Assembly (NCBI GenBank): GCA_964615625.1
Contig: CAZTQT010000005.1
Span: 1-54,829, forward strand
DNA: 54,829 nt
Reading direction: 5' to 3'
Origin: an uncultured Candidatus Saccharibacteria bacterium
Lineage (GTDB): Bacteria > Patescibacteriota > WWE3 > UBA101185 > UBA10185
In this document: positions 1 to 25,062 of the stretch, piece after piece
Layout of the letters: each line of letters begins with the position of its first letter
How positions within the stretch are numbered: the first letter of the stretch is position 1
Notes under the pieces: generated by a model
The model's input: only the letters and a program-made list of their open reading frames with translations
Told to the model about the DNA's origin: nothing
Database searches by the model: none
Program-made: the position numbers and the translations under genes

Positions 1-36
1 CTGCGCTTCCTCTTAGTTGCTACGCAACAGGCTTGC
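1..36. repeat. Truncated copy of the structured repeat found in the second tRNA-Val copy
   Basis: CTGCGCTTCC (1-10) is the reverse complement of GGAAGCGCAG (24115-24124). It is followed by a hairpin GTTGC-TAC-GCAAC and AGG, the same layout as CATCGC-GTA-GCGATG-CAGG in the reverse complement of 24091-24124. Cut by the window edge. Confidence 0.6.
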
Positions 37-91
37 GCCACGATATATTAATTTACTTGTAATAGGTATTGAAAATTTGAAAATTTGAAAA

Positions 92-1813
92 TTAAATAAA
101 GTTAAATTTATCTTCGGGGTGTGGCTCAGTTGGTAGAGTGCGCGGTTTGGGACCGTGAGGTCGGCGGTTCGAGTCCGCCCACCCCGACCATTGTAAAAAC
201 CAATGTTCAAAATCCCCCTTATTTGCTCCCACCATAACTAAATCATCCAGTTCGCTAGTTTCTGAAAAGCTTTCTATAATTTCTTGGCTATTTTTTAACA
301 CAATAAATGGTTTTATAAGGTCAACAATGAGTTTTCCATCTAAAATGTAAAAGTTCGCGCCTAAAGTTCTTAATATTTTAGTTTTTTGTTCAGGAGTTCC
401 TTTTTCAAAAGCTAATTTTGCATTCTTAGTAAACTCAAATGTCCTAATAGCTGTATCCATCCAATCTAAAGTATCGACTTTTAATTTTTCTAACTTTGAT
501 TTCAAATCATTAATGGTATCTTCATATGTTTTTCTAGTTAAATCGTATTCTTCAATATCATTTAGACTTCCACGTGTATATAAATTAGTTAGTCTTACTA
601 TCCCTGCCTGTTCCTTTTCCAAAGTATCTTCTAAATTTCTAATTATTAAAGTTTGTTTATCTTGCTCTTTTTCGTTATTTTGTTTAATCCAGGAAATAGC
701 CCAGTTTGAAAATTCCTCGGATATAGTTATTTGTTCTAATAACTTCTTAACTTGCTTATCTATTTCGTTTATAGATAATTGCTTTTGTGTACATTTAACT
801 TTGGTAATATCATGGTTGCACCTAGCATATGAATAAGGCTTTATAGAACCAGAGGCAAGTTTTTTATTTTTAACATAAGGAATATAACTGCTCCCACACT
901 CACCACACTTGATTAAACCTCTATAGGGAACTTCAGTGTATTTACTAGGTCTAGGACGACCTTTATCTCCTAGAATATCCTGGATTACCCAATATTCTTC
1001 CTCTGTTATCATTCTAGGAATACTCTCATGAATTTTATATGTATTTCCAGCCCATTCATGCATACCAAAGTAATAAGGGTCACGTAAAAACTTGTAGAAA
1101 GTGCTTTTAGCTAAAGGACTATTACCAGTTTTCTTAGTTTTTATAGTTCTAAACCCCCATTCATTATTAAGTATATCTAGTATTTGAGATACCGAATAGC
1201 TTCGGGTCATGAACAGGTCTACTGATTTACGTAAAAGATTAAATCTAACCTCGTCTTTCTCAATTGTAGGCTCTCCATAAGGATTATATTTGTTTATATA
1301 ACCAATCTTAGATTTACCAGGCATCCATCCTCTTAAAACCTTGTCTTGTTGCCCCCGTTTCACATCTACACTCAAATCTTTCACATAAACATGAGAACTA
1401 CTAAATTTATTATAAAGACTAGCAATATCACTAGAATTATCTAAATAGATTTGCTGTGGGGTAACAATTGCAGTAATAAAACCTTTGGATAAAAAATCAA
1501 TTAGTATACCTGCCTCTGTAGCGTTTCTTGATAAACGATTTGGATGCCAACAAGCTATAACTTGATAATCACCTTTCTTTATAGATTCAACTAAAGCATT
1601 AAATATAGGCCTTTGAAAAGCGTCCTTAGCAGATTTAGCCTCCTGTAAAATAGACTGTTTTGAATAAAATAGTCCTAACTCATCGCATATATGTAAGGTT
1701 TGCTTAAGCTGGCTTTCCAAAGATGCAACCTGTCTATCTTCTGATTCAGTGCTTTTCCTAGTATAGATAACGGCTTTTAAGCCTTTTAATTGTGCAGAGT
1801 TAAAAATTTCCAT
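92..1813 (-). CDS. Large serine recombinase (resolvase, recombinase, Zn-ribbon and coiled-coil domains)
   Basis: Catalytic YTRKST motif, RLSRN motif, CGECG...C...C zinc ribbon, C-terminal coiled coil. The last ~32 residues (WSGWADSNRRP...) are the antisense reading of tRNA-Pro and its upstream flank. Confidence 0.93.
   Translation of the reverse strand: MEIFNSAQLKGLKAVIYTRKSTESEDRQVASLESQLKQTLHICDELGLFYSKQSILQEAKSAKDAFQRPIFNALVESIKKGDYQVIACWHPNRLSRNATEAGILIDFLSKGFITAIVTPQQIYLDNSSDIASLYNKFSSSHVYVKDLSVDVKRGQQDKVLRGWMPGKSKIGYINKYNPYGEPTIEKDEVRFNLLRKSVDLFMTRSYSVSQILDILNNEWGFRTIKTKKTGNSPLAKSTFYKFLRDPYYFGMHEWAGNTYKIHESIPRMITEEEYWVIQDILGDKGRPRPSKYTEVPYRGLIKCGECGSSYIPYVKNKKLASGSIKPYSYARCNHDITKVKCTQKQLSINEIDKQVKKLLEQITISEEFSNWAISWIKQNNEKEQDKQTLIIRNLEDTLEKEQAGIVRLTNLYTRGSLNDIEEYDLTRKTYEDTINDLKSKLEKLKVDTLDWMDTAIRTFEFTKNAKLAFEKGTPEQKTKILRTLGANFYILDGKLIVDLIKPFIVLKNSQEIIESFSETSELDDLVMVGANKGDFEHWFLQWSGWADSNRRPHGPKPRTLPTEPHPEDKFNFI
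115..190 (+). tRNA. tRNA-Pro(TGG)
   Basis: 76 nt cloverleaf: acceptor CGGGGTG/CACCCCG, anticodon arm CGCGG-TTTGGGA-CCGTG, GGTTCGAGTCC T-arm, encoded CCA. Confidence 0.97.
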
Positions 1814-1834
1814 AGTCTAATAAAATCCTATCGT

Positions 1835-2020
1835 CTATTTAACTTTTTTAGAGCCCTCTTTTTGAAAATATTCTAAGTCGTAGTAGTCTCCTAAACATTC
1901 CTCTACAAGCTCCCTAATTGACCTCTGAAGTCGTGCAGCTTCTACTTTGAGGAGTTTATGCCATTGCGTATCTATACGTATCTGTTTTGTTAGTTTTGTG
2001 TCACTTTGTCGACTTTTCAT
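1835..2020 (-). CDS. Small ribbon-helix-helix-like DNA-binding protein (possible regulator or directionality factor)
   Basis: 61 aa with beta-strand then two helices (TKQIRID-TQWHKLLKVEAA-RSIRELVEECL). GGGGG RBS, directly upstream of the recombinase. Confidence 0.6.
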   Translation of the reverse strand: MKSRQSDTKLTKQIRIDTQWHKLLKVEAARLQRSIRELVEECLGDYYDLEYFQKEGSKKVK

Positions 2021-2079
2021 AAAACCCCCTTCGGGGAGTTCTCTGGTCCGTGTTCCTACTCTTGAGGCTATATATTTAT

Positions 2080-2100
2080 TAGTAACTAGTTACTAGTAAC
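2080..2100. promoter_or_regulatory. Overlapping perfect palindromes (candidate operator)
   Basis: TAGTAACTAGTTACTA (2080-2095, 16 bp) overlaps GTTACTAGTAAC (2089-2100, 12 bp), 60-80 bp upstream of the RHH-like gene. Confidence 0.5.
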
Positions 2101-2306
2101 ATGTAACTTATTACTAAGAACAAGATACATGTTCTAGAACCTTAGCCTCTGTCGTGAGGTATCCGTCCAGGTGTGGTAAAACATCTTCTATGGCTCCCTT
2201 TCGGAGATGTAGGCTACCCACACAGCCTCTGCCAATTTAATAAAAGTTATTTCTAACCTTTGGTAGACAATCAACAAGATTACCTAACAAAAGTTACAAG
2301 TTTAGT

Positions 2307-2474
2307 TCAACTCTCATTACTCTGATTAACTAAATTAGGTTCTTCTAGTAACATCTTGAAAAACAAAAAAACTCTGGTTGCTTTATCTGTAGCCTCTTGA
2401 AAGGTTAATTCGACACCAAAGTTCTTTTTGTATATTTGTATAAATTCTTTAATTGCTTCTTCTGGTAAAACCAT
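2307..2474 (-). CDS. 55-aa helical hypothetical protein (below the ORF-track cutoff)
   Basis: Hand translation: MVLPEEAIKEFIQIYKKNFGVELTFQEATDKATRVFLFFKMLLEEPNLVNQSNES*. Co-oriented with the recombinase module. Confidence 0.7.
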   Translation of the reverse strand: MVLPEEAIKEFIQIYKKNFGVELTFQEATDKATRVFLFFKMLLEEPNLVNQSNES

Positions 2475-2526
2475 AAAAGCACTATATAGAGAGAAAGTTT
2501 TTATGTATGGGTATATAAGGTGACTC

Positions 2527-3174
2527 TTATGACTCTGAAATACCTGCAGTATTTTTAATGGATTCTAATATTTTATTAATTTGGTCTTCTGACACGACAA
2601 ATAATTTATTAGAATTTTCTTCAGATAAGTTAGCCATATGGATTGCTATTTCTTTATTGGACATTCCAGCAAGGTGACAATTTAGTATTTCTATATCACG
2701 TTCTAAAAGATTTTCATCACGAAGTTTATAGCGTTCTTTTGTAAAGGCGAAATGACTTACTTTTATATCAGATACAAAATCCCAAATTTCTTTTATATCC
2801 TTGATGGTGGTATGGTCCCAAATTTGGATATTCATAGTTAAGTCTTTTTCTCCCTCATTACGCCCATAAGAAACAACTGGTAAATCATCTATATCTATTT
2901 GCTGATTAAAGAGTGTGTAATAAACTAAAAAACGTTGCCAGTACGCAGGAAGATTGTAGTTATTCCTCAAACTTACTACGTGTTGTGAAAACTCTTTTGG
3001 CATTTTTCTAGCAATTGAAAACTGCTTTATTTCTTCTCTTTCAGCATAACCTTCGCTTGGGATACTAAATAACTCTCGAAGTTCTTTAATATCTTCAATA
3101 AATTTTGTTGTACTTAAGAGTATTTTTGCACGTTGCAAAGTAGTAGGTTTATTCATTTGGTAAATCTCCTTCAT
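2527..3174 (-). CDS. Hypothetical protein with C-terminal HTH-like region
   Basis: 215 aa. RDIEILNCHLAGMSNKEIA resembles a LuxR/sigma-4-type HTH. Confidence 0.55.
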   Translation of the reverse strand: MKEIYQMNKPTTLQRAKILLSTTKFIEDIKELRELFSIPSEGYAEREEIKQFSIARKMPKEFSQHVVSLRNNYNLPAYWQRFLVYYTLFNQQIDIDDLPVVSYGRNEGEKDLTMNIQIWDHTTIKDIKEIWDFVSDIKVSHFAFTKERYKLRDENLLERDIEILNCHLAGMSNKEIAIHMANLSEENSNKLFVVSEDQINKILESIKNTAGISES

Positions 3175-3721
3175 AAACTAAGGTAGCTTGGTTGAGGTCT
3201 AAACCAACATCTAAAAATTTTTGCTCAAAATATGCTTTTACAACACCTAACTTTTGTCTATGCGTTAATGAATTTTCATCTTCAAAGATATCAAATATGG
3301 AATCTCTACTTACTTGTTTCATTAAAGCACCATTTTTGACTAGAGTGTCATTTAAAACTTTTCTGTTTTTGGCTAAACTTTGAATGGCTTGAAGTTTCAG
3401 TTGAGTAGTAACGGTTTTATCTGTAATAACGTTCCAAAGTTCTTGTTCAAGTTTATAAAAAGTTCTCGAAAACTCAGCAGAATGCCTCTCAATATCAGTT
3501 TCATTTAATTCTGATTTCCAGCCTTCACGTATTTCTTTAATCCAGTTGTAAACAGTTCTTGGAGTAACACCAAAGTGTTCAGATATTTCAGTTGCAATAT
3601 TTATATCCTTCCTAAAAGGATATCTAACTAACAAGTCTTCCAATGATATTAGAGCTTGTTGTTTCTTGAGTTCTGCAATAGAACCCCCTTGTTTTTTTGA
3701 AACCAATGAATCTGTCTTCAT
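3149..3721 (-). CDS. HTH DNA-binding protein
   Basis: 190 aa. IATEISEHFGVTPRTVYNWIKEIR is a classic HTH, followed by a helical region. Confidence 0.65.
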   Translation of the reverse strand: MKTDSLVSKKQGGSIAELKKQQALISLEDLLVRYPFRKDINIATEISEHFGVTPRTVYNWIKEIREGWKSELNETDIERHSAEFSRTFYKLEQELWNVITDKTVTTQLKLQAIQSLAKNRKVLNDTLVKNGALMKQVSRDSIFDIFEDENSLTHRQKLGVVKAYFEQKFLDVGLDLNQATLVYEGDLPNE

Positions 3722-3744
3722 AGACTCATTATAACCGAAGTGAC

Positions 3745-3774
3745 AAAAAGCATAGGGCAGTATTTCTACTGCCC
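3745..3774 (-). terminator. Intrinsic terminator after the SH3b gene
   Basis: Minus strand GGGCAGTA-GAAA-TACTGCCC followed by TATGCTTTTT. Confidence 0.65.
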
Positions 3775-3781
3775 ATATAAC

Positions 3782-4153
3782 TTACTTAAACGTAACAATG
3801 TTTTGACCGACCCAACCTTCGGTATCTTCATACCTAATCTTGTAGTAAGTAATTTTTTGGTCTAGTTCATTTGTTACTTCTTTTTCATCTATAACAAGAA
3901 CATCACTTTTATTTGGTATTTTTGCAATAGGAGTTTCTTTACCAGGCATCTCTGCAGTTGCCCAAACATTAACTCTAGAATCGGATAGTTCATCTAAATC
4001 ATCACCACCAACCATTGCTGGTTTTTCTATGTAAGCTTCTTGTACTACTTCTTTTGTATCTTCTTTCTTAGTATCAGGAGTAGGGGTGACAATTAACAAA
4101 ATAATAAAACCTAAAAGTATAATTCCAATCCACTTTAGTACTTTTTTCAACAA
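3782..4153 (-). CDS. Membrane-anchored SH3b-like domain protein
   Basis: N-terminal TM helix (WIGIILLGFIILLIV), then VNVW...VLVIDE...YYKIRYEDTEGWV. AGGAGG at 4164-4159 favours a TTG start at 4153 or 4150. Confidence 0.65.
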   Translation of the reverse strand: MLKKVLKWIGIILLGFIILLIVTPTPDTKKEDTKEVVQEAYIEKPAMVGGDDLDELSDSRVNVWATAEMPGKETPIAKIPNKSDVLVIDEKEVTNELDQKITYYKIRYEDTEGWVGQNIVTFK

Positions 4154-4155
4154 AA

Positions 4156-4338
4156 TCACCTCCTTAATTTCAATAAATTTGTTTTTACTGTAAAAATCGG
4201 AAGTAAGGAGCTAAATAACGCTATCTCTGGGAGCTCCAGAACTAGTCGTATGGAATTTTTTGTTGTATTTATGCTGAAATATAGCCATTTGAAATTGGGT
4301 TCCAAATATTGAGTTGTGGTGCTTTTATTGCCAAACAT
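4156..4338 (-). CDS. Possible leader ORF, 60 aa
   Basis: GGAAGG RBS 10 nt before the ATG. Its stop abuts the RBS and start of the SH3b gene, and it lies under a structured leader. No recognisable domain. Confidence 0.3.
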   Translation of the reverse strand: MFGNKSTTTQYLEPNFKWLYFSINTTKNSIRLVLELPEIALFSSLLPIFTVKTNLLKLRR

Positions 4339-4339
4339 A

Positions 4340-4453
4340 AAGGGACAACCTTCCGGTATCCACAGCTTGGCAGCAATAGACCCTATGGAAAGGTTGCCCC
4401 TTCATGGGTCCATTGCTTTTTTAAGCATGTTTAAGTAAAGCTGCCAAGCTGTG
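4340..4453 (-). promoter_or_regulatory. Structured leader with alternative anti-RBS pairing
   Basis: Perfect 14-bp IR CACAGCTTGGCAGC (4361-4374) / GCTGCCAAGCTGTG (4440-4453). 4387-4402 is nearly complementary to the RBS region 4340-4354. Confidence 0.55.
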
Positions 4454-4559
4454 TTTAATTTACTTGTTTATTATATCAGGAGTTTTTGATATTCAATACA
4501 AAAGGATATCTTAAAAAGAAATTGTGGTGGTTAATATTAAGAAATATAATAGTCTTAGC

Positions 4560-7500
4560 ATGACTAAACAGAATACACACGATGAAAGCATAGAAGAAAT
4601 TAAAACGCTGTATAAGAAATACTCTGCTGAAGATGTTTTTAGTGCACTTTTTGCGTCATCCCTCTGGCTCCCTAACAGCACTAGTTATATTCAACACCAA
4701 CTATTTGTAGCTACAGCTCTGGCGCTAAAACAATCAGCATATCAAGAAAAGAACAAAATCAATGAATATAATAAGCTTAAGGAATTCCTTGAAAAACTGT
4801 ATGCGCTAACATCCGGATATCCTACCTTTGAAGACTATATACCAACCTTGGATTGGGGAGAAGTCAAATTTCCATATGAAGATGAACAATACAAAATACT
4901 ATATGGCGGAGAATTGGACAATGCGTATGATTATATGACCCTTTTCAAAATACTTTACTGCAATATGGACGGACACTATCAGGAACAAGTGAAACGCAGT
5001 CCTACAAAGGAATTCGAAGGATTTCTAATACTACAAGATAGTTTGCTAAATAAAATAACCTCCCAAAAGAAACTCACTGAAGAGGTACCTGATATTGAAT
5101 TAATGCACACAGAAGTACCTACTGAGAAATTTTGGAAAGAGTGTATCTCTTTTATTAAAACTTCAGTTATTACCGAGCTATTTCCAGAAGAATCATTAGG
5201 TGAATTGACTATAAACATGGGCAATTTGAATGAAAAGAGTTTAACAGCTAAGAATTTCTTAAATAAGGTCGGGGACGGAAATCTTTTAAAACACCTATTT
5301 GTTCAGGTAGGTACTAAATACATACCAATTTTACCAAGAAGGGGACTAGCAGTATTACTTGATAGGTGGTCGAACTATTGTAAAAAGCTAGTATCAGAAG
5401 GGGAAACCTCTATAGAAAGGAACTATCAAAAGGAAATAACCATTGAACTTGCAAAATATCTACAGGGAAGACTAAATAAACGAGAACTATTTCCATTAAT
5501 TAGTGCCCAAAAAGATAATAGCGAGTCTCTAGATGAAGTTTTTGCTGCAGGCATTTCCACAGAAGAAACATTTATTGCTGTGTATGCCCTACCACCCGTA
5601 ACTGATAGGGAAAAATGCAAAGAATTTATTAGAAAATATGAAGCAGCTATTAAAGAATCAATAAATAACTTAAAAAGAACACCAGTAAAATTTGCATGGC
5701 ATTTGGAAAAAACAGGAATGCAAGCTCCCTATAACCATGAAAAAGTAGAAACTCTAATTGTAATACCACAAGCTACTACTAAAATGTTTGGAGTAGAGAG
5801 CTTTAAAAACTTAAATCCTCGAATAATGTTTTTAGAAGAGTTTTTAGCAATATTGGATGAGATAGAAAGTGCAGAAGATTTAGTAAAGTATTGGGACTAC
5901 TGCGATGATTTAGAAAAAAATAGTCAATTTGTCCCTATAACATCAAACCTTGATAAATTTGCATCCTATATAGATTCTCACGGTGTCCTTGTACCTGGGG
6001 CTAATACACCAAATATGATATTTATGGACCTATCTTGGGGAACCAATTATAGATACAAATCTCTTGCCAGCTTTTGGGAACTTTATCCCCAAGAAAGCTG
6101 GTATGGAAACCCTAGAGAGTGGAACGTTAAAAAAGAAAGGGAAAACAGCGTAAGAGTCACATCAAAAACTGAGAATATGCATTCAGCAATCTACCTTACA
6201 CTAGGTGATAAAAGGATTTTCATCTCTGCGCCATTTGAAAAGTTAGGATATAAAGAAGGCTCACTAGCTAACCTCTTTGTAGAGTGTGTGGGCGATTATT
6301 TTGCTAGATTCAGCGATTTACTAGAGCAACATAGTTTCTTCCAAGGTAGCGCAACTGTACATACACTTATATTTCCAAATAACCTTACAACATCAGAAGA
6401 TTTTAAGCACATAGTTCACTTGAAACCAGAACAGGATGAGCTATGGAAGCTAGATACTGGTTGGTTCCAACCAGGACGTTTTGGAATAAGAATTGTTTTT
6501 AACATAGAAAAAGTCCTAGAAATGTTTGAAGACATTTCAAGTAATGATATTGAAATTGAGTTGATTAAAGATATTGTAAATGCAATAAATGACAGAACAA
6601 CCAGAGAGGATATCAAAAAAATAACAGACGCAATAGAAAAATTAAGGGGCAATCCTGCCAGATTCAGAGCCTTTCATGCGGATAAAAATGCGGCATTCCC
6701 AGACTTTGTTAATACAATGACTCCTGGAATTCATGAGCATAAACTTGCACGTAAAAATATATCCTTTATTGCAAAAGAAGCAGGGTTAGAACAGGGGTTG
6801 TATGAAAAGGATGAGGCTAAAAAACTAATAGTAGACCTCAGAGCTAAAATATTAGAGCTTATTGAAAAAGAAGTGCAAAAATTTGATTGGGAAGACTCAA
6901 TTAGATTTCTAATAACTAGGACAGACGCCCTGGTACATAAATACGAAATGGCCAGAGCACATGCAAAAAATTCATTAGAGCAGGAGGTTGAATACAACCC
7001 AGAAGAACGCCATGCGGAAGCGCACAATGAGTTTGTATTAAACCACAAATGCTACAGATACTTGATAGAAAAATTTTTACAATTGAAACCAAAAGGTCCC
7101 AAAAAGATTGACAGTAAGGAATTTAAATATATGGCAAGCCTGGTGGACAAATTAATAGAAGTATATGCTGCCAGTGACCACTTATTTTATGGTATATACC
7201 CTGCAAAACTACGTGTTTCTTATGACTATGTAACTAGTGTTGAGTATCCTCAAGACATTGACGCAATGCAAAAAAGATACGGAGAAGAAGAATCACAAAT
7301 ACAGCTAGGAATAATAGGTAATAATCAAGATAAAGTAGAATCCCCTACACCATTCGAAGATTATCTAGATGACTTAGATAAAGCCTTTGCCAAAGACCTT
7401 GGTTTTTCTATAGCGGAATTACTAAGTATTCTTCAAATACTCTCTCAATGGGCATATTTTCAAGAAAAAGTAGTAGAGAAAGCTTACTATCAAACTAAGA

Positions 7501-8294
7501 AAGAGACCATTCAAAAAACATGTATGAAACACATCCCCAATTTGACTATAGAAAGCTTCAACAAAATAATTGACTTTCTTACTTTGGAACAGAATGATTT
7601 ACTTAAAGTAATTGGAGAAAATGAACTAGCAGCGGACTTACCTGTATGGGAACATGATTTACGGCCCTTCCGATACACAATAAGACCTCTAATAGAAATA
7701 GAAGACGACATTGTTTGGGGACCTTATTCAGCTTATAAAACACGTATTATATGGGAGAATGTGGCAATTTATAATAAGTTACCCGCAAATATGGATACCT
7801 ATGAAACTAAAAAAGTTATTGATAGAGAAAAGAAATTAATAGAAACAGCGTTAGAGATAAAAACCCTTGAAATCATTAAGAGACACACAAAATTTGCTGA
7901 TAGTATAAATTATTCTAGAGGTACCCATCCCCAAGAACTCGGGGACTACGATACTTTAGCCTACATAAAAGGAAAAAATGTACTACTTAATATTGAGTGT
8001 AAAGACCTATTACCTGTGTACAACTTAAAGAAGGCAAGTGAGCTTAAAGAAAAGATATTTGATGATACAAAGCCAAAGAAATATTTAAAAAGAGTAGAAA
8101 ATAGAGAGGAATATTTGAAGAATAATATCAATGCATTTAATGAAAAACTCGAATGGGATATAAAAAAAGACGCAAAAATAATTTCACTGTTTATTACCAG
8201 ACATAACTATTGGTGGACTAAATTTCCTCCTATAAGAACAAATGTTAAGTTTATGAGAATAGACTTACTTGAAGAATATCTAGAAAGCATTTAA
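4560..8294 (+). CDS. Large hypothetical protein with C-terminal PD-(D/E)xK-like nuclease motif; candidate defence protein
   Basis: Long uninterrupted ORF (track starts at 4524; ATG 4560 preferred, 1,244 aa). GDYDTLAYIKGKNVLLNIECKD fits D...ExK. Located in the island beside the R-M pair. Confidence 0.7.
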   Translation: MTKQNTHDESIEEIKTLYKKYSAEDVFSALFASSLWLPNSTSYIQHQLFVATALALKQSAYQEKNKINEYNKLKEFLEKLYALTSGYPTFEDYIPTLDWGEVKFPYEDEQYKILYGGELDNAYDYMTLFKILYCNMDGHYQEQVKRSPTKEFEGFLILQDSLLNKITSQKKLTEEVPDIELMHTEVPTEKFWKECISFIKTSVITELFPEESLGELTINMGNLNEKSLTAKNFLNKVGDGNLLKHLFVQVGTKYIPILPRRGLAVLLDRWSNYCKKLVSEGETSIERNYQKEITIELAKYLQGRLNKRELFPLISAQKDNSESLDEVFAAGISTEETFIAVYALPPVTDREKCKEFIRKYEAAIKESINNLKRTPVKFAWHLEKTGMQAPYNHEKVETLIVIPQATTKMFGVESFKNLNPRIMFLEEFLAILDEIESAEDLVKYWDYCDDLEKNSQFVPITSNLDKFASYIDSHGVLVPGANTPNMIFMDLSWGTNYRYKSLASFWELYPQESWYGNPREWNVKKERENSVRVTSKTENMHSAIYLTLGDKRIFISAPFEKLGYKEGSLANLFVECVGDYFARFSDLLEQHSFFQGSATVHTLIFPNNLTTSEDFKHIVHLKPEQDELWKLDTGWFQPGRFGIRIVFNIEKVLEMFEDISSNDIEIELIKDIVNAINDRTTREDIKKITDAIEKLRGNPARFRAFHADKNAAFPDFVNTMTPGIHEHKLARKNISFIAKEAGLEQGLYEKDEAKKLIVDLRAKILELIEKEVQKFDWEDSIRFLITRTDALVHKYEMARAHAKNSLEQEVEYNPEERHAEAHNEFVLNHKCYRYLIEKFLQLKPKGPKKIDSKEFKYMASLVDKLIEVYAASDHLFYGIYPAKLRVSYDYVTSVEYPQDIDAMQKRYGEEESQIQLGIIGNNQDKVESPTPFEDYLDDLDKAFAKDLGFSIAELLSILQILSQWAYFQEKVVEKAYYQTKKETIQKTCMKHIPNLTIESFNKIIDFLTLEQNDLLKVIGENELAADLPVWEHDLRPFRYTIRPLIEIEDDIVWGPYSAYKTRIIWENVAIYNKLPANMDTYETKKVIDREKKLIETALEIKTLEIIKRHTKFADSINYSRGTHPQELGDYDTLAYIKGKNVLLNIECKDLLPVYNLKKASELKEKIFDDTKPKKYLKRVENREEYLKNNINAFNEKLEWDIKKDAKIISLFITRHNYWWTKFPPIRTNVKFMRIDLLEEYLESI

Positions 8295-8361
8295 AAATGG
8301 ATTCTTTTCAAAGTTTATTGGGGATACTAAGGCTGAGACATTCCGATGGTAATATCTAAAT

Positions 8362-9114
8362 ATGAATCAACATAAAGCATGTGTTTTTTGTAAAAAAGAA
8401 GTAAAACTAACTAAAGAGCATGTACTCCCAAATTGGTTGTGCTCCTTATATCCAACGGATGAAATGGTAATAAATGAGTTCACGGGTGCTAGCCAATCAC
8501 AATGGAATTCTAAAATCTTTCAACACACAGCAAAAGTGGTATGCGAAAGCTGTAATGGTGGCTGGATGTCTAAGCTCGAAAAGGACATAAAGCCGCTTCT
8601 GACCAAAATGCTTAACTTAGAACCATTACTTATTCAAAAAGCTGAACAAGAGCTACTGGCTTTCTGGGCACAAAAAACATTTTTAATGCTGAACAAGGCA
8701 ATACCGAATGGCTTAAAAATAACACAAGATGCATACGATGATGTATACAATTTGAAGAGTTCTTCAAAAAAGATTTTAGTAAACTTGGGATGGAGAGCAA
8801 ATTTTCAGGGTACAAAACAAAATCCAATTGCTAGTTATGAAATAAAACAAATTACATCCATACAAGTAAAAAAAGAGCTTGGAAAACAAGTGGAAGAAGA
8901 AAAAAATAATGGTGGTTTTGTATGGAAAGGAGTATTTGCAATAGGTCCAGTTATATTCGAGTTAATTGGGCACAATATGCCAATAGTACTCAATGTAGAA
9001 ATACCTAAAAACAGCCTAAAAACCATACAACCCTATAAGGAAAATTTAAATTGGCCAAATGAATGGCCCGCAGAAGCTGAGGGTGGCCTAGATAAAATAA
9101 AAACCAGGGGATAA
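8362..9114 (+). CDS. HNH-type endonuclease-like zinc-finger protein
   Basis: CVFC...TKEHVLP...VVCESCN pattern (CxxC, EH, CxxCN). Confidence 0.7.
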   Translation: MNQHKACVFCKKEVKLTKEHVLPNWLCSLYPTDEMVINEFTGASQSQWNSKIFQHTAKVVCESCNGGWMSKLEKDIKPLLTKMLNLEPLLIQKAEQELLAFWAQKTFLMLNKAIPNGLKITQDAYDDVYNLKSSSKKILVNLGWRANFQGTKQNPIASYEIKQITSIQVKKELGKQVEEEKNNGGFVWKGVFAIGPVIFELIGHNMPIVLNVEIPKNSLKTIQPYKENLNWPNEWPAEAEGGLDKIKTRG

Positions 9115-9157
9115 GGTAACTTTATGCTTTGAGATAGAAATAGTACATAACAAAGAA

Positions 9158-10249
9158 CTATTTGATAAATCTAATCTGTAAATTCAGATTAAATCTCAAA
9201 GAGTTGTCGGAATTATATACATTTCCAAACCCATACCTACTTGTAGAAGGAGTATCGAATTTTGTGTTATTGAACAGGTAATTCTCAAACTCATTCACAT
9301 TGTATATGTGATAACAGACCAGGTCACCGTCATCTTTCACTATTATGTAGCCTCCCGATGCCCAATAATCACCTTCCCAAGCTTTAGCAGGGGTCATCCC
9401 TAGTGCAACAGCAACCAGGAAACGTTTAATTTTATATACATACAATTTGTGCGTATCTGTATGAAAATTCAAAGGATTTTCCTGTTCCAAAAGGGCAACT
9501 AAATCCTTAACTGTAGAAGCTCTGCCAGAGTAGTAATAGAGCACCATATTTGAAATTATTTCGGGTAAACGTGAATCTATCATTCCTAAATTAAGGGTGA
9601 ATATCTCGTTACCTGTAGAAACAAACTCAAAATTATAACCTTGTTCGATTAAACTAGCTATTTTGTCTCTTATTCTTAAACTCTCGTCACCAACATCGTA
9701 ACCTACATCAGATGATTCTCTTACACTATGTTTTTCACTATTGAGATTGTATTCAAAATTTGTAGCATTCCCTGCATTAAGTAAAGTAGAAGCACCTCCC
9801 AATTGAGATTTAATACTAAAACCTAAAGTAGGAGTTAGTCCTGTTCTAAAATCATGAATTATTAAATTGATATCTTCTTTCTTATTTGAATTTGCCTTTA
9901 GTTTTTTTACATGAATAGTTTTCAAGAATTCCTCTACGTCTGCTACGCCAAATGTTCTGCCTTTTATAGCATCGCTTTTTATAGTTTTCAAAACCTTTTC
10001 TGCATTCATTTGGAAAGTATCGAAGGGTATTTCACCTAACACTTTTGAATTATCTCCATCAATAATTTTTACTAAACCTTCCCTTCTATACTCCAAATCT
10101 CTTTCTTCCTTCCTTAAAATACTAATAATCGGGTAATAAATGTCTTTAACTCGTTCCAGGTTTTCGTTTGCAGCATATAATTCACCAGCTCCTAATAGCT
10201 TTAAGAAAGTATAAATTTCACTCCATTCGCCTATATTACCTGTCATCAT
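9158..10249 (-). CDS. Type II restriction endonuclease, HpaII family
   Basis: N-terminus GNIGEWSEIYTFLKLL, GFSIKSQLGGASTLLNA, and C-terminal KFDTPSTSRYGFG...LNLQIRF. Overlaps the MTase gene by 14 nt. Confidence 0.85.
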   Translation of the reverse strand: MMTGNIGEWSEIYTFLKLLGAGELYAANENLERVKDIYYPIISILRKEERDLEYRREGLVKIIDGDNSKVLGEIPFDTFQMNAEKVLKTIKSDAIKGRTFGVADVEEFLKTIHVKKLKANSNKKEDINLIIHDFRTGLTPTLGFSIKSQLGGASTLLNAGNATNFEYNLNSEKHSVRESSDVGYDVGDESLRIRDKIASLIEQGYNFEFVSTGNEIFTLNLGMIDSRLPEIISNMVLYYYSGRASTVKDLVALLEQENPLNFHTDTHKLYVYKIKRFLVAVALGMTPAKAWEGDYWASGGYIIVKDDGDLVCYHIYNVNEFENYLFNNTKFDTPSTSRYGFGNVYNSDNSLRFNLNLQIRFIK

Positions 10250-11252
10250 AAAGTTTATCTCCTAAAATTTTTACTATTTCCTCTGCAGTGGCCTGTATTG
10301 CGGGTACAGCAACAGAATTGCCAAATTGTTTATATGCTTGTGCATCAGATACAGGTATCTTGAAAGAATCAGGAAATCCCTGCAACCTTGCCCATTCCCT
10401 AGGAGTCATCTTTCTAATTCCCTCTCTATTAACCTCACCCTTAATATTTGTTATTGGTACAAAATTTTCAAGTCTAGTATCTATAATCAAGTTTCTCTCC
10501 CTGCCCATACCCCCTACAACTACAGCATTAGCAATATCATCTAGGTCTTTTATTTCATAACCAAAACCATTACCTTTACTTTCATGCCTTTTCTTATGTT
10601 CTCTTAGGGACTCTAGATAAACATCAGATAGATAATACTTCACGGATACGGGTTCTTCCTCAACTATATCTTTAATGGAAACATTAATATTTCTTGGTTT
10701 AGGATACTCAAAAGAATCAATCCCCAGGTCCTTCCTAAAACCAATGATAAAAACTCTTTCTCTGTTTTGAGGAACACCATAATCCTTAGCGTTTACTATT
10801 TGGGGTTCTGGCACATAGTAATCCAGGTCTTCTCGCAATACGTTTAGAATTGTTTTTAGAGTCCTGCCTCTGTCATGATTGGTTAATCCTTTTACATTCT
10901 CTAGAAACACTACTTTAGGTCTCTTGTGTTTAATTATTCTAGCTACTTCAAAAAACAAAGTACCTCGAGTGTCTTCAAAACCCCCTCTTTTACCTGCAAT
11001 TGAGAAGGCTTGGCAAGGAAACCCCGCTAGCAAAATTTCATGGTCTGGAACATCTTGTTCCTTTATTTGTCTTATATCACCGAAGGGAGTTTCACCAAAA
11101 TTGGCATGGTAAGTCTGCTGACTATATTTATCCCATTCAGAGGACATTACTGATTCACCACCAACATTCTCAAAAGCCATTCTGATACCACCGATACCAG
11201 CAAAAAGGTCTATTACTCTGAATTTTTTAATGTCATTAACCATTATTTCCAT
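10236..11252 (-). CDS. DNA (cytosine-5) methyltransferase, cognate of the endonuclease
   Basis: DLFAGIGG (motif I), GFPCQ (IV), LENV (VI), QNRER (VIII), QFGNSV (X). Confidence 0.97.
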   Translation of the reverse strand: MEIMVNDIKKFRVIDLFAGIGGIRMAFENVGGESVMSSEWDKYSQQTYHANFGETPFGDIRQIKEQDVPDHEILLAGFPCQAFSIAGKRGGFEDTRGTLFFEVARIIKHKRPKVVFLENVKGLTNHDRGRTLKTILNVLREDLDYYVPEPQIVNAKDYGVPQNRERVFIIGFRKDLGIDSFEYPKPRNINVSIKDIVEEEPVSVKYYLSDVYLESLREHKKRHESKGNGFGYEIKDLDDIANAVVVGGMGRERNLIIDTRLENFVPITNIKGEVNREGIRKMTPREWARLQGFPDSFKIPVSDAQAYKQFGNSVAVPAIQATAEEIVKILGDKLYDDR

Positions 11253-11287
11253 TATACATTGGTCAATAACAATACATAAAGGTATTA

Positions 11288-11365
11288 TTAGACTAAACTA
11301 GGTATAGAAACTGTAGCAGGACAAGTCATAAAATAGTTACAAACTTCGTCCACTATGCTCGACCA
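11288..11365 (-). other. Detached C-terminal coding segment of the recombinase (rejoined on excision)
   Basis: Reads in frame from the shared TGG TCG core as WS-SIVDEVCNYFMTCPATVSIPSLV*. It has no start codon of its own. Confidence 0.6.
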
Positions 11366-11561
11366 ATGAATTTTGGCTACCGATGTAATTGGTAGACAAA
11401 ATTTATTAGTGGGTGGTAAGGAGTTAACCTAGGCTTTAGCCGTGGTTCCACTTTTGATGCTATAGTGCGGAGCACTATGGCTCAAATGCAAGCTTTGCTT
11501 TGTCCGCCCACCCCGACCAATGAATTTTGGCTACCGATGTAATTGGTAGACAAAATTTATT
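11360..11561 (+). repeat. 48-bp perfect direct repeat (11360-11407, 11514-11561) flanking a structured mini-element with an 18-bp tRNA-Pro 3' copy
   Basis: CGACCAATGAATTTTGGCTACCGATGTAATTGGTAGACAAAATTTATT occurs twice and is itself a hairpin. GTCCGCCCACCCCGACCA at 11502-11519 equals 173-190. Confidence 0.95.
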
Positions 11562-15960: not shown

Positions 15961-16155
15961 TTTGCTGGTGGGCGAGAGAGGACTCGGTCACAAGTCCACG
16001 TATCTCTACGTCACTCCGTTCCTAGAGCTTCGTGGCTCGCGACCCCCTCTCGCTCGCCTTCGGCTCACTGCGAATTATTCTCGTCCTCTCTCATAAGCGA
16101 AAAATATATCGGCATAAAGCCGACACATTTTTGCTGGTGGGCGAGAGAGGACTCG
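15961..16155 (-). repeat. 26-bp direct repeat of the tRNA-Leu 3' end enclosing a 143-bp structured mini-element
   Basis: TTTGCTGGTGGGCGAGAGAGGACTCG at 15961-15986 and 16130-16155. Confidence 0.92.
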
Positions 16156-22165: not shown

Positions 22166-23119
22166 ATGCAAACAAAAATAGAAAAACAACCAAAATCAAC
22201 AATAAAAATGACCGTTGTTATAGAAAACAGCGCAGTTAAAGATTTTTATGAAAAAGAAGTTTCTCATGCTGTAGAATATGTAGAAATACAAGGTTTCAGA
22301 AAGGGAACAGCCCCAAAAGAAATGGTAATAGAAAAAGTTGGTAATTCCAGACTGTATGGAGATACAATAAACAGTCTTTTACAACACTATTACCCACAAG
22401 CTTTAAAGGAAAACCATCTTAACCCGATATCTAACCCAAAAGTGGACATAAAGGAGTTTGATATATCAAAAGACCTCGAGTTCACAGCAGAATTTGCAGT
22501 TAGACCAGAGGTTAAAATTGGAGATTATAAAAAGGCCTTGAAAGATTATTACAAGGAAAAAACAGAAAAACTTGAAGCTGCTAAATTAGAAAAATCAAAA
22601 GAAGAAGGGGATGATAAAAAAGAAGAACAAGAACACGACCACCATCACGATCATGTCCATATTGGTTCAAATGAAGTTATAGATATCCTTATAAAAGAAA
22701 CAAAAACTGAAGTTTCCGATATTTTGTTAGAAGAAGAAACAGACAGAATGATGACAAGATTGGTAGAACAACTGGAAACTATAAAATTGCCATTAGATAA
22801 ATATCTTGAAGCTCAAGGAAAAACTGCAGAAGAGTTAAGAAAAGAATATAACGATATGTCAGAAAAAAATATTAAGGCCGAGCTTGTTATGGCCCATTTA
22901 ATAGAGGTTGAGAAAATTGAGACTACGGATGAAGAAATAGACGAAATGATATCTGCAATAGGAGATCCTACATTAGGAGAAAAATTAGAAGATCCTGTAC
23001 AAAGACTTTATATCAAAAACATTCTTCAAAAAAATAAACTTTTAACCAAATTAATAGAAGAAGTGGAAGGACCAAACTTCCACGGTAATCACGAACATAA
23101 GGAGAAAAAAGATGAATAA
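22166..23119 (+). CDS. tig: Trigger factor lacking the FKBP/PPIase domain
   Basis: GFRKGTAP ribosome-binding motif, N-domain, charged His-rich linker, C-domain; 317 aa. Confidence 0.9.
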   Translation: MQTKIEKQPKSTIKMTVVIENSAVKDFYEKEVSHAVEYVEIQGFRKGTAPKEMVIEKVGNSRLYGDTINSLLQHYYPQALKENHLNPISNPKVDIKEFDISKDLEFTAEFAVRPEVKIGDYKKALKDYYKEKTEKLEAAKLEKSKEEGDDKKEEQEHDHHHDHVHIGSNEVIDILIKETKTEVSDILLEEETDRMMTRLVEQLETIKLPLDKYLEAQGKTAEELRKEYNDMSEKNIKAELVMAHLIEVEKIETTDEEIDEMISAIGDPTLGEKLEDPVQRLYIKNILQKNKLLTKLIEEVEGPNFHGNHEHKEKKDE

Positions 23120-23708
23120 CACATTAGTTCCAATAGTAATAGAAAAAGATCAAGGAGGGATGGAAAGATCCTATGATATATATTCCAGACTTCTTAAAGA
23201 TTTTATAGTTTTTGTTACAGGACCAATAGATATGGGGGTGGCAAATACTTTTATTGCACAACTACTTTTTCTTGAAAGTGTAAATCCTGATAAAGACATA
23301 AGTGTTTACATTAATTCCCCTGGAGGCGAGGTATATGCTGGAATCGCAATGTACGACACTATAAAACACATAAAAAATGACGTGGTTACAATAAATGTGG
23401 GACTCTCAGCTTCAGCTGGGGCTTTAATACTTTCGGCCGGGACAAAAGGTAAAAGATATGCTTTGCCAGGATCTCACACAATGATTCACCAAGTTATAGG
23501 TGGGGTAGAGGGGCAGGCAAGTGATGTTGAAATAACAGCAAAACACATGTTAAGACTTAGAGATCAATATGCTGAAGCTATATCAAAAGAAACGGGTCAA
23601 AAATTAGACAAAGTTAAAGGGGATATGGATAGAGATTACTGGATGGACGCAAACGAATCTGTAAAATATGGAATAATAGATAAAATAATGAATCCAAAGA
23701 AAAAATAG
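23112..23708 (+). CDS. clpP: ATP-dependent Clp protease proteolytic subunit
   Basis: DIYSRLL, YINSPGG, SASAG (Ser), MIHQ (His), DRDYWM (Asp). Confidence 0.97.
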   Translation: MNNTLVPIVIEKDQGGMERSYDIYSRLLKDFIVFVTGPIDMGVANTFIAQLLFLESVNPDKDISVYINSPGGEVYAGIAMYDTIKHIKNDVVTINVGLSASAGALILSAGTKGKRYALPGSHTMIHQVIGGVEGQASDVEITAKHMLRLRDQYAEAISKETGQKLDKVKGDMDRDYWMDANESVKYGIIDKIMNPKKK

Positions 23709-23773
23709 GGTAAAATACCTTCTGTTTATTAATAAAACTAGACTTGGTGGTTTGAAAAATAAAATAATACTTC

Positions 23774-23850
23774 GGGCGGTTAGCTCAGCCGGTTAGAGCG
23801 CCACATTGACATTGTGGAGGTCATAGGTTCGATCCCTGTACCGCCCACCA
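23774..23850 (+). tRNA. tRNA-Val(GAC)
   Basis: 77 nt: acceptor GGGCGGT/ACCGCCC, anticodon arm CCACA-TTGACAT-TGTGG, GGTTCGATCC, encoded CCA. Confidence 0.97.
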
Positions 23851-23902
23851 AAACAACTAAACTAGATTTACGAAAATTTCCAAATAAAAAGATAAAGTAT
23901 CT

Positions 23903-24164
23903 AGGCTGTTAGCTCCTGTTGGAGCGAAGCGACAACCGATCCTAACCAACCTAAAGAATATAGAAATATATTTAAATGAGCCAGTGGCGAATAAGTAGTA
24001 AGAAAATAAAACAAGCAAAAGTACAGAAGAGTTAGGAGAGTCGGTTAGAGCGCCACATTGACATTGTGGAGGTCATTGGTTCGCAAAATTCCTGCATCGC
24101 TACGCGATGTAAAAGGAAGCGCAGCGAGTGAAACGAGCGAGCAAGCTTTTATTACCGCCCACCA
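23903..24164 (+). pseudogene. Second tRNA-Val copy in three pieces, split by 126-nt and 70-nt insertions
   Basis: 23904-23915 matches 23775-23786 at 11/12, 24042-24083 matches 23790-23831 at 41/42, and 24154-24164 matches 23840-23850 at 11/11. Confidence 0.8.
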
Positions 24165-24213
24165 AAAACCTACCATCACTTCAACAAACCTAAAAATCAT
24201 CTATAATAAAATT

Positions 24214-24993
24214 ATGCTAAATGACCTTCAGAAAAAATACCTAGAACTCACAAAATTTGGACCATATCCCTCACCATATTTTTTCCACATCAGAAAAGGC
24301 GGTCAAATAATGTATTACTTAGGATTTGACCATACCTACGACGCAAAAGACTTATCTTGGGGTGTTCTTGATAATTACATGCAAGATTTTATAGATAAAA
24401 CTGACGGTAAAAAACGAATGGTTTTAGTGGAAGGTGGGGAGAAGATACTAGCCTCCGGAAGAAGGGACCAGATAAAAGCAATGGGAGAAGCTTATTACAC
24501 ATGGTACTTAGCTCAATCCTCAGCAATTCCTGTTATATACCCAGAGCCGGCAATCAATGACCAGTTAAAATTCCTTTCAGAAAAATTTCCAAAGGATGTG
24601 ATAATAACAAGCATTTTTGTAGAACAACTGTGCATAAGAAGTAACTACATAAAACCTGACAATATAGAAAGCTCTCTTTTATCTTACTTAGATTACGTTA
24701 AAAATGCTGTTAAATGGGAAGATGGAGTTTTTGACATAAAAAATATATTTGAATGTTATAAAAAAATATCTGGGATAGAACTTGATTACAACAATCTTGA
24801 ATACATAAGAAAAGAAACTGACCCTTATTTAGAAATTAACACTATCAATGAAGTTATTAACACAAAATCACAGTTTAAAGATAAAATAACATTGAAAAAT
24901 ACAAAAGATTTATGGGACAAAGGGTACAATATACTTGCTGTTTTTGGTAAAAGCCACGCTATAATGCATGAGATATCCATAAAAGAGTGGTAA
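24214..24993 (+). CDS. Hypothetical protein
   Basis: Open frame from ATG 24214. The track's upstream extension merely overlies the split tRNA copy. Confidence 0.7.
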   Translation: MLNDLQKKYLELTKFGPYPSPYFFHIRKGGQIMYYLGFDHTYDAKDLSWGVLDNYMQDFIDKTDGKKRMVLVEGGEKILASGRRDQIKAMGEAYYTWYLAQSSAIPVIYPEPAINDQLKFLSEKFPKDVIITSIFVEQLCIRSNYIKPDNIESSLLSYLDYVKNAVKWEDGVFDIKNIFECYKKISGIELDYNNLEYIRKETDPYLEINTINEVINTKSQFKDKITLKNTKDLWDKGYNILAVFGKSHAIMHEISIKEW

Positions 24994-25062
24994 CTGTGAT
25001 ATTATATATGTGATATTATATAAAAGATTTTTAGTAAATATTTATCACTTTAGATAATTAGT

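Follow-up and report, generated by a model that had tools for sequence, protein, structure and literature searches.

Is the second tRNA-Val gene of this contig an intron-bearing bacterial tRNA, or is it the remains of something else? In the 54,829-nt stretch of DNA analysed here (the window), an intact tRNA-Val(GAC) gene is followed by a copy whose parts are all in order and separated by inserted sequence. A preliminary description of the locus left two readings side by side: an intron-like or processed RNA, and a dead copy hit twice by a mini-element. Both inserts, small repeats able to form hairpins, recur at fixed tRNA-gene positions in related tiny-genome bacteria, and the locus is for this reason most likely a mobile-element scar rather than an intron-bearing bacterial tRNA. 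More specifically, we lean towards reading the second tRNA-Val as a paralogue, without function, of the gene that lies 52 nt upstream. It is interrupted by two non-coding repeat families, here called Z and H, which target fixed structural positions in tRNA and tmRNA genes. From the second of the earlier readings we keep the dead copy and the repeat-family inserts, and replace the one mini-element by two different ones. Interest in the locus moves accordingly from the tRNA itself to modules Z and H.

Anatomy of the interrupted tRNA-Val copy

The tRNA-Val region contains the following features:

23774-23850 (+): intact tRNA-Val(GAC), the functional paralogue (ARAGORN; Rfam RF00005, 68.3 bits)
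23851-23902 (+): A-rich spacer of 52 nt between the intact gene and the broken copy
23903-23915 (+): piece 1 of the broken copy, AGGCTGTTAGCTC, tRNA positions 1-13
23916-24038 (+): module Z, 123 nt, between tRNA positions 13/14
24031-24046 (+): 3' partner of a long-range helix, GTTAGGA + GAG bulge + TCGGTT (minimum-free-energy fold; covariation)
24039-24083 (+): piece 2, tRNA positions 14-57
24084-24087 (+): CAAA, a 4-nt T-loop insertion between positions 57/58
24088-24094 (+): piece 3, ATTCCTG, tRNA positions 58-64 (end of the T-loop and 3' T-stem)
24095-24152 (+): module H, 58 nt, after the T-stem at positions 64/65
24153-24167 (+): piece 4, TACCGCCCACCA, tRNA positions 65-76, plus AAA (piece proper 24153-24164)

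The broken copy begins 52 nt downstream of the intact gene. Three segments in order had been reported at this distance, and alignment recovers all of them with the identities given: 11/12 at 23904-23915, 41/42 at 24042-24083 and 12/12 at 24153-24164 (15/15 with AAA). The copy is in fact in four pieces, since ATTCCTG (24088-24094) has to be added. This piece matches the intact gene at 6/7 positions (gapped alignment against the next 350 nt) and contains the 3' T-stem that the preliminary description had found unclear. Joined, the four pieces make 77 nt, all in order, which ARAGORN calls as tRNA-Val(GAC); it makes no tRNA call either for the earlier three pieces joined or for the joined sequence retaining CAAA. 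As found, with its inserts in place, the broken copy is called by neither ARAGORN nor Infernal, and RF00005 and ARAGORN give 23774-23850 only in the region.

The inserts also have to be redrawn. The D-side insert measures 123 nt (23916-24038) instead of 126 and lies exactly between positions 13/14, and what had been taken for a single T-loop insert is really CAAA at 57/58 and a 58-nt module at 64/65. BLAST likeness to the intact gene runs from 24031 (83% over 70 nt, with a 4-nt gap); it extends back this far because the last 8 nt of Z, GTTAGGAG, are a mutated copy of tRNA positions 6-13. Piece 1 matches the intact gene at 11/13 positions; its two mismatches, positions 1 and 5, fall in the acceptor stem. 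Piece 2 runs from the D-loop through the GAC anticodon arm and the variable loop to the 5' T-stem ATTGG and TTCG. Piece 4 belongs to a 15-nt direct repeat, in which the intact gene's last 12 nt and AAA (23839-23853) recur at 24153-24167; the flank on its 3' side leads into a 259-aa ORF at 24214.

Between the joined copy and the intact gene, positions 1, 5, 16, 51 and 60 differ; between the joined copy and the tRNA-Val of relative L011, positions 1, 5, 63 and 64 do. The copy has T16 and T51 (both in piece 2) and T60 in common with L011, and T63 and G64 in common with the intact neighbour, where only the neighbour has the compensating A51. The joined copy is thereby left with mismatches A1-C72 and T5-C68 in the acceptor stem, the two that the preliminary description had counted, and T51-T63 in the T-stem. 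Because the copy shares states with both L011 and the neighbour, it resembles a paralogue frozen mid-way while the functional copy evolved on.

The full structure is present in five independent assemblies (L001-L005) and is therefore not an assembly artefact. The tRNA body varies among these strains, with G46A in L001 and L003-L005, and strain L002 has one additional Z unit compared with the window. In relatives L011-L013 (neighbouring protein at ~70% identity), a single tRNA-Val follows ClpP, and a second tRNA-Val, Z or H is absent from the locus, so the same split, which the preliminary description had suggested seeking in relatives, is missing at this distance. In relative L016, ~35 nt separate the 3' end of tRNA-Val from the orthologous ORF. 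As the relatives are without it, the broken copy is young and specific to its lineage. Neither a precise empty site of the Val structure, among the strains and relatives compared, nor an excised circle was found. The genes next door are bacterial (IscS, IscU, MnmA, trigger factor and ClpP). The leaning towards non-function in the preliminary description is borne out by the paralogue upstream, the acceptor mismatches and the absence in the ~70% relatives.

The structure also bears on annotation and assembly. Broken tRNA copies can pass for intron-bearing or extra tRNA genes and mislead gene callers, and in one assembly the neighbouring ORF is annotated as 311 aa and stretched over module H. The repeated tRNA body breaks assemblies: several contigs terminate within it.

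Modules Z and H at tRNA and tmRNA genes

Module Z starts with a mimic of the D-arm, GCTC-CTGTTG-GAGC (23912-23925). Next come a segment in antisense to the D-arm (23934-23946) and a centre rich in A/T, and the module ends with a leader-like stretch and GTTAGGAG. The antisense segment, AACCGATCCTAAC, pairs with GTTAGGA-GAG-TCGGTT, that is, with the mutated 5' tRNA part and the D-loop. The preliminary description had already pointed out this helix, and it is both present in the minimum-free-energy fold (z = -3.9; 0/200 shuffles fold equally well) and kept in six homologous copies, where 90% of cells are paired versus 20-47% in slid controls. Four pairs are changed on both sides, including C-G to G-C and U-A to A-U exchanges that go with the GCTC/GGAG difference. 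At its 3' end, Z joins the tRNA (24038/24039) within the 3-nt bulge of the helix; the 5' junction (23915/23916) falls inside the stem GCTCC/GGAGC, ~18 nt away. The antisense segment of Z is complementary to the D-arm of the tRNA that follows, and a 5' decoy copy flanks it.

Z is present in six copies, in two genomes, at tRNA-Val, tRNA-Pro, tRNA-Ile and tRNA-Ala genes, and the copies share 67-87% identity with that of the window. Three of them are on the contig of another organism (L127), two at tRNA-Ile and one at tRNA-Ala, with identities of 87% (Ile) and 81% (Ala). The copy at the tRNA-Pro locus of the window's own contig, just upstream of the window (L021), is 78% identical, includes a 31-nt identical stretch and is followed by a pseudo-tRNA-Pro that starts with the same GTTAGGAG; of this genome, the analysis covered the 54.8-kb window and 5.9 kb on its upstream side. 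TAGCTC (positions 8-13) directly precedes Z in 5/6 copies; the tRNA-Pro copy follows another sequence. The extra unit of L002, 125 nt long, lies upstream of the intact tRNA-Val and consists of GGGGCGGTTAGCTC, a Z homologue and a leader, followed by the gene. Where Z lies upstream of functional tRNAs (L002 Val and L127 Ile), exact copies of positions 1-13 flank it.

The L127 tRNA-Ile locus has the order and spacing of the Val locus: intact gene, spacer, TTAGCTC, Z, GTTAGGAG, tRNA body, H and 3' end. Its anticodon arm is Ile-specific, the piece in front of Z fails to match the Ile acceptor, and the 3' part of the Val spacer (23851-23902) is ~75% like the Ile spacer at the equivalent place (27/36, by eye). 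The site that CAAA occupies in the window (57/58) is the place of module H in L127 and other loci.

Module H comprises a hairpin, P0, CATCGC-TAC-GCGATG (24095-24109), an outer stem TAAAAG/CTTTTA, a conserved core of AGGAAGCGCAG (24114-24124) and GAGCAAGCT (24139-24147), and an inner element, CGAGTGAAACGAGC. It was searched for with a pattern built from this genome's two copies, AGGAAGCGCAG-N(8-32)-GAGCAAGCT, with exact core matches, which gave over 119 loci in metagenomes and over 111 in species-representative genomes. As the search used exact cores and the copies come from the matches listed, all counts of H are lower bounds and biased to one subfamily. The high-GC matches show no stem pairing, mostly read as coding sequence and are taken as chance. 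We read the two matches in IMG/VR viral contigs in the same way: Both are without a complementary outer stem and apparently lie in coding sequence.

The low-GC matches share a fold: their outer stem covaries (TAAG/CTTA, TACA/TGTA, TATG/CATA, TACG/CGTA or TAAA/TTTA), their internal loop is conserved, and the sequence of their inner hairpin is free. They amount to at least 65 distinct structured copies, both on low-GC metagenome contigs and in genomes that carry the labels Saccharibacteria, WWE3 and Patescibacteria. As a guard against circular selection, copies were classed by the inner hairpin alone and pairs were counted at fixed offsets. The first outer pair is formed in 93% of the 54 hairpin-class copies listed, with GC, AT and CG types (shuffled mean 64%), and 48 different inner hairpins are found among the same 54. 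The 305 inner-stem pairs include 6 G-T versus 2 A-C, and the outer stem 19 G-T versus 30 A-C; in this weak test, the nearly pure Watson-Crick stems fit folded DNA at least as well as RNA.

Rfam 15 returned nothing over Z or H in the window and nothing for H in nine loci with a well-formed H (E <= 1): Scans of the region, the whole window and the nine loci gave tRNAs and rRNAs only. No published description of H-like elements was found in the literature searched, and Z and H together appear to be a tRNA-associated repeat system without a description there. By eye, neither Z nor H has terminal inverted repeats at its ends. Many H copies end in TATAAT, and H also occurs in tandem arrays and far from tRNAs.

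Of the 65 H copies listed, 32 are within 400 nt of a tRNA or tmRNA gene, and in 15 the 3' flank (at least 11/12 nt) is repeated in the nearby tRNA or tmRNA gene. Same-strand repeats start in the T-loop, and opposite-strand repeats are the reverse complement of positions 1-8. In the same-strand layout, an intact tRNA is followed by 100-300 nt, H and a tRNA copy from T-loop to CCA; it was found for Glu, Phe, Ser, Gly, Ile, Ala and a tmRNA (L167). In the opposite-strand layout, H lies 25-40 nt upstream of the tRNA and adjoins the reverse complement of positions 1-8; it was found for Pro in at least 10 genomes or contigs, some of them labelled WWE3 or Saccharibacteria, and also for Leu, Val, Gly and Thr. 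Many H copies lie directly 3' of TTCG or TTCA in T-loop-like sequence. At L193, two tandem mini-inserts each end at a copy of the tRNA-Glu 3' end. The 3' repeat at L060, L132, L246 and L193 is identical to the intact tRNA, with a pseudo 5' part that is almost unrecognisable.

H-bearing copies at loci other than that of tRNA-Val are 3' fragments or have a 5' piece that does not match. When H was removed in silico at 63 H loci, no H-bearing copy became a valid tRNA and only opposite-strand intact tRNAs were called. The direct repeats range from 8 to 60 nt overall (18-60 nt at the other loci) and sometimes include flank beyond the tRNA. The tRNA body beside Z or H matches the local gene: Val in the window, Ile in L127 and Pro upstream of the window.

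Each of the window's three tRNAs (Val, Pro and Leu) has a duplicated 3' end, and three further features of the window belong to this picture:

1-47 (-): second H copy of the genome, continuing upstream of the window; upstream of tRNA-Pro (L021)
11408-11519 (+): mini-insert downstream of tRNA-Pro, with a pseudo-tRNA-Pro, an H remnant and a 3'-end copy
15961-16154 (-): tRNA-Leu(TAG) 3' end with a direct repeat, two 25-nt copies around an insert

The H copy at 1-47 adjoins a duplicated tRNA-Pro leader and positions 1-7, and the Z copy and pseudo-tRNA-Pro described above lie just upstream of the window. The mini-insert of tRNA-Pro, 95 nt, consists of a decayed pseudo-tRNA-Pro and an H remnant whose core is deleted, with a hairpin at 11462-11478 and GCAAGCTTT at 11488-11496; by eye, the remnant resembles the H type of L022. 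Positions 59-76 of tRNA-Pro are copied at 11502-11519 and a 42-nt flank is duplicated (11366-11407 and 11520-11561), so the mini-insert is bounded by an 18+42-nt repeat. The tRNA-Leu repeat, GAGTCCTCTCTCGCCCACCAGCAAA, covers 25 nt from the T-loop to CCA plus 5 nt; its copies, at 16130-16154 and 15961-15985, enclose a GA-rich insert of 144 nt.

Explanations for the modules

Z and H are families of repeats with covarying stems, their insertion positions are fixed, and the tRNA ends beside them are duplicated. Fixed junctions, duplicated tRNA ends, a retained intact gene and pile-ups of fragments give the picture of tRNA-integrating elements, here miniature and gene-less. We infer that the elements are mobile, act at the DNA level and are mobilised in trans. 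Z and H would then be miniature integrated elements that carry no genes and depend for movement on a recombinase or transposase encoded elsewhere. Z sits after position 13 and comes with its own leader and a copy of positions 1-13, the three together forming the putative Z unit. H, an imperfect hairpin with a conserved internal loop, lies in or just after the T-arm and adjoins a copy of the tRNA 3' end; the H unit would be body, H and tRNA 3' end. Insertion inside a tRNA gene would duplicate the displaced end or import a copy of it; as the end is duplicated or supplied, one copy would stay intact and the displaced or element-borne copy would be left as a fragment. Repeated events could heap such fragments on either side of the gene. 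The hairpin of H and the long-range helix of Z would bring or mark the junctions and are the likely recognition structures.

In its most specific form we offer this explanation tentatively, as one possibility: Z and H may be the recognition structures of undescribed, gene-less, folded-hairpin integrative cassettes, widespread in genomes labelled Patescibacteria, that home to 8/9, 13/14, 57/58 and 64/65, regenerate the gene by providing or doubling its displaced end, with a new promoter on the 5' side, and are moved in trans by an enzyme of the host or of an element. Several observations speak against the explanation as a whole. No recombinase or transposase accompanies the Val structure or is among the 25 commonest Pfam families around H in 52 loci, and no homologue of the window's serine recombinase is near any H; neither IMG/VR match proved to be an H; the Val structure showed no empty site or excised circle; and H lacks terminal inverted repeats by eye. 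The local identity of the tRNA body calls for local duplication or gene conversion, for which a freely moving element alone is insufficient. Repeats of 8-60 nt, sometimes with flank, fit neither a fixed target-site duplication nor a simple att core. Finally, with half of the H copies listed away from tRNAs and many ending in TATAAT, H may have a host function, for example as a promoter.

With no recombinase linked to H, a local tRNA body and repeats of variable length, a history in which duplication came first remains a substantial rival, which we nevertheless regard as rather unlikely. Here a tandem duplication would have been followed by independent hits on the spare copy by two MITE/PATE-like hairpin repeats (IS200/IS605-like single-strand transposases), inserting 3' of TTCR or TAGCTC without duplication; insertions into single-copy tRNAs would be lethal and therefore never seen. 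The intermediate sequence state of the broken copy, like that of an in-lineage paralogue, agrees with such a history, as do the architecture of H (P0 as a subterminal hairpin on the left, another hairpin on the right, and stems almost wholly of Watson-Crick pairs), the many H copies directly after TTCG or TTCA and five of six Z copies after TAGCTC, and the lack of both terminal inverted repeats and a fixed-length target duplication. However, the identical order and spacing at the L127 tRNA-Ile is improbable for independent events, decay at L060, L132, L246 and L193 is uneven between the identical 3' repeat and the almost unrecognisable 5' part, Z upstream of functional tRNAs is flanked by exactly positions 1-13, and no Y1 transposase is among the 25 commonest Pfam families of the 148 ORFs near H. 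The modules might instead be cis-acting RNA leader or trailer elements of tRNA operons, with roles in processing, transcription or stability, whose fragments act as decoy and anti-decoy and which place the broken tRNA-Val in a processed non-tRNA transcript. We consider this improbable. The region does fold better than its shuffles (z = -3.9) and its stems covary, a Z segment is antisense to the D-arm of the following tRNA and has a 5' decoy copy, an antisense H lies just upstream of tRNA-Pro in at least 10 genomes or contigs, and many H copies have TATAAT ends. Against this, the Val structure is missing in relatives at 70% identity and copy number varies by strain, G-U pairs are nearly absent from the stems, H is found in tandem arrays and far from tRNAs, and a promoter and terminator scan placed its only site upstream of the intact tRNA and none inside the structure.

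It is very unlikely that the broken copy works as a tRNA-Val gene whose D-loop and T-arm introns are removed by an endonuclease and ligase or by self-splicing. Every tRNA nucleotide is kept in order and the joined product is called tRNA-Val, the CCA and anticodon are intact, and the Z 3' junction lies in the 3-nt bulge of a conserved helix. But a spliced product would have mismatches at A1-C72 and T5-C68 and another in the T-stem, and three excisions would be required, one of a mere 4 nt. The pre-Z piece of L127 mismatches the Ile acceptor, other H-bearing copies are 3' fragments only, strains vary in the tRNA body (G46A), and an intact gene lies 52 nt away. In a bulge-helix-bulge, both splice sites lie in 3-nt bulges with a 4-bp helix between them; here the Z 5' junction is within a stem and there is no second bulge, and therefore no such motif. 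Group I and group II intron models gave no match in 23000-25000 (E <= 10), where the inserts are 123 and 58 nt. The intron-like reading of the preliminary description is for these reasons given up in favour of the mobile-element scar. Two kinds of candidate were also set aside: MITEs derived from DDE transposases, as no terminal inverted repeats were seen by eye and the flanking repeats are 8-60 nt, and hammerhead (the start of Z is CUGAUGA-like), k-turn and attC-box motifs, whose defining bases are by eye not present.

Known systems and the search for a mobilising enzyme

Partial tRNA genes are known to arise from integrating elements such as prophages and genomic islands, which can also form tandem arrays (PMC9897764), att cores in the T-loop exist, for example that of Ms6 (PMC1762012), and ssrA islands of Dehalococcoides carry serine recombinases (PMC3146451). 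The loci described here resemble tRNA- and tmRNA-targeting integrative elements in having an intact tRNA at one end and a direct repeat from the T-loop to the 3' end. As at att sites, the insert is bounded by a direct repeat of the tRNA end with the intact tRNA on one side. As with tRNA-targeting islands, tmRNA is also a target (L167), tandem pile-ups occur (L193) and fragments mimic a second gene. Unlike integrative elements, the inserts are ~60-300 nt long, without an integrase or any gene; insertions at the 5' end (8/9 and 13/14) mirror those at the 3' end and supply a new leader; and a conserved imperfect hairpin lies exactly at the junction, with repeats that sometimes extend beyond the tRNA by up to 42 nt.

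Small dispersed hairpin repeats of bacteria include REP/BIME, Correia, RUP/BOX and the palindrome-associated elements derived from IS200/IS605 (reviewed in PMC3184786). H is like REP/BIME, Correia and RUP/BOX in being short, non-coding, intergenic, multi-copy and hairpin-forming without an adjacent transposase, and some copies have promoter-like ends. It differs from REP/BIME-type repeats by its strictly conserved asymmetric internal loop with a variable inner hairpin, by its strong tie to tRNA and tmRNA ends at fixed positions with duplicated tRNA segments, and by the lack of an identified RAYT or TnpA partner. H can also be compared with integron attC sites, which share the imperfect hairpin, conserved unpaired bases, a variable terminal stem and a junction at the 3' foot. 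Small gene-poor units, tandem accumulation and the need for an enzyme in trans recall integron cassettes, a likeness that serves as a lead only. Unlike attC, H ends without RYYYAAC/GTTRRRY boxes, no integron integrase is nearby, and the target is a tRNA gene and not attI.

In bacterial tRNA genes, group I introns normally sit in the anticodon loop. The Val copy is likewise an interrupted bacterial tRNA gene, but its inserts are not in the anticodon loop, are far too short for a group I core and have no Rfam intron match. Archaeal tRNAs can have non-canonical and multiple introns or be split (PMC4090602, PMC3218864), and the Val copy resembles multi-intron tRNAs in its D- and T-arm interruptions, its parts in order and the helix with a 3-nt bulge at one junction. 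It differs from them in its bacterial host, the absence of a bulge-helix-bulge, the acceptor mismatches and the adjacent intact paralogue, and because its inserts are members of repeat families that also occur outside tRNAs.

The modules suggest very small structured non-coding elements that land on conserved tRNA architecture, in bacteria with minimal and mostly single-copy tRNA sets. If mobile, they would be among the smallest site-specific elements known and could reshape tRNA promoters and trailers, and the hairpin core would help to trace the enzyme behind their movement. Should they be host RNA elements instead, they would be a new conserved motif of Patescibacteria tRNA operons.

No recombinase or transposase gene lies within or beside the Val structure, and the 299 nt between the two 15-nt repeats hold no ORF with a family match. 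The neighbourhoods of H (52 loci, 148 ORFs within 3 kb) give the same result for integrases and transposases, none of which is among the 25 most frequent Pfam families; these are housekeeping families such as DnaB, EF-P and Hsp70. The window itself encodes a large serine recombinase (92-1813), next to tRNA-Pro, which we rejected as the mover of H because no homologue is found near any H. This gene is part of a separate 11-kb island, whose own crossover appears to lie near CGACCA, apart from the H mini-insert, with its right junction read by eye.

Strain variation at tRNA-Val and the adjacent reading frame

The G at position 46 of the variable loop (window 24072) is changed to A in the broken tRNA-Val copy of four strains (L001 and L003-L005). 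The same change is found in the broken tRNA-Ile copy of L127, a contig from another organism, whereas the intact genes keep G46. One further strain (L002, in which 3640-3800 is the variant of window ~23750) carries an extra unit upstream of intact tRNA-Val, composed of tRNA-Val positions 1-13 and Z, the 123-nt repeat module. The shorter tRNA-Val leader in the window looks like the product of a deletion between two TTGAAAATA repeats. Three short-read contigs (L006, L007 and L009) stop at window ~23819-23981, within the part of tRNA-Val (body or T-arm) that is repeated, and the contig of L016, a relative at ~70% protein identity, starts within that part of the gene: an assembly break at this duplication would be expected to look like this.

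Beside the broken copy lies a reading frame:

24058-24993: region of the 259-aa ORF, ATG at 24214

Gene calling in one of the assemblies, L001, lengthens this ORF to 311 aa from a TTG start at 24058, a reading that crosses the pseudo-tRNA and H, the 58-nt hairpin module; the extension is likely an annotation artefact. No Pfam family matches the 259-aa protein, which has only 12 homologues.

Arrangements of H and other inserts at RNA genes

H also occurs in tandem, with three units at a 54-nt period in contig L105 (minus strand, ~8818-8960) and pairs in L049, L034 and L029/L094. Many H copies terminate in a perfect -10 hexamer, TGTATAAT or CGTATAAT; in some cases, as in L037, a tRNA gene follows ~30 nt further downstream. 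In L167, H adjoins a duplicated 3' end of a gene that ARAGORN identifies as tmRNA, and the pseudo T-arm directly before it, TAGCTTTAGCTGGGTTCG, is common to L167 and L073.

In L127 (4840-5390), two truncated 5' copies lie ahead of the rRNA-operon tRNA-Ala: one stops at position 13, with Z after it, and the other at about position 27, with a different module after it. Downstream of the gene, a 3'-end repeat surrounds a 110-nt insert that lacks an H core. This arrangement suggests that more module families and junction positions exist.

A 3'-end duplication is also present in the window:

15961-16154, minus: duplicated tRNA-Leu(TAG) 3' end, 25 nt, T-loop to CCA plus 5 nt

The two copies are separated by a 144-nt GA-rich insert. 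Part of this insert (15980-16086) matches a segment of L079, a metagenome contig that carries an H copy as well, at 97% identity.

The island at tRNA-Pro

At its 3' end, tRNA-Pro (115-190) carries an integrated island of ~11 kb (window 92-11348), whose large serine recombinase has a reading frame that extends into the tRNA. No family match was found for the island's 1256-aa ORF. Other features of the island are:

92-1813, minus: large serine recombinase gene (Resolvase, Recombinase and Zn_ribbon_recom domains)
within 92-11348: HTH protein
9161-10249 and 10239-11252: HpaII-type restriction-methylase pair
11348-11365: right junction, altered repeat GTCCACTATGCTCGACCA
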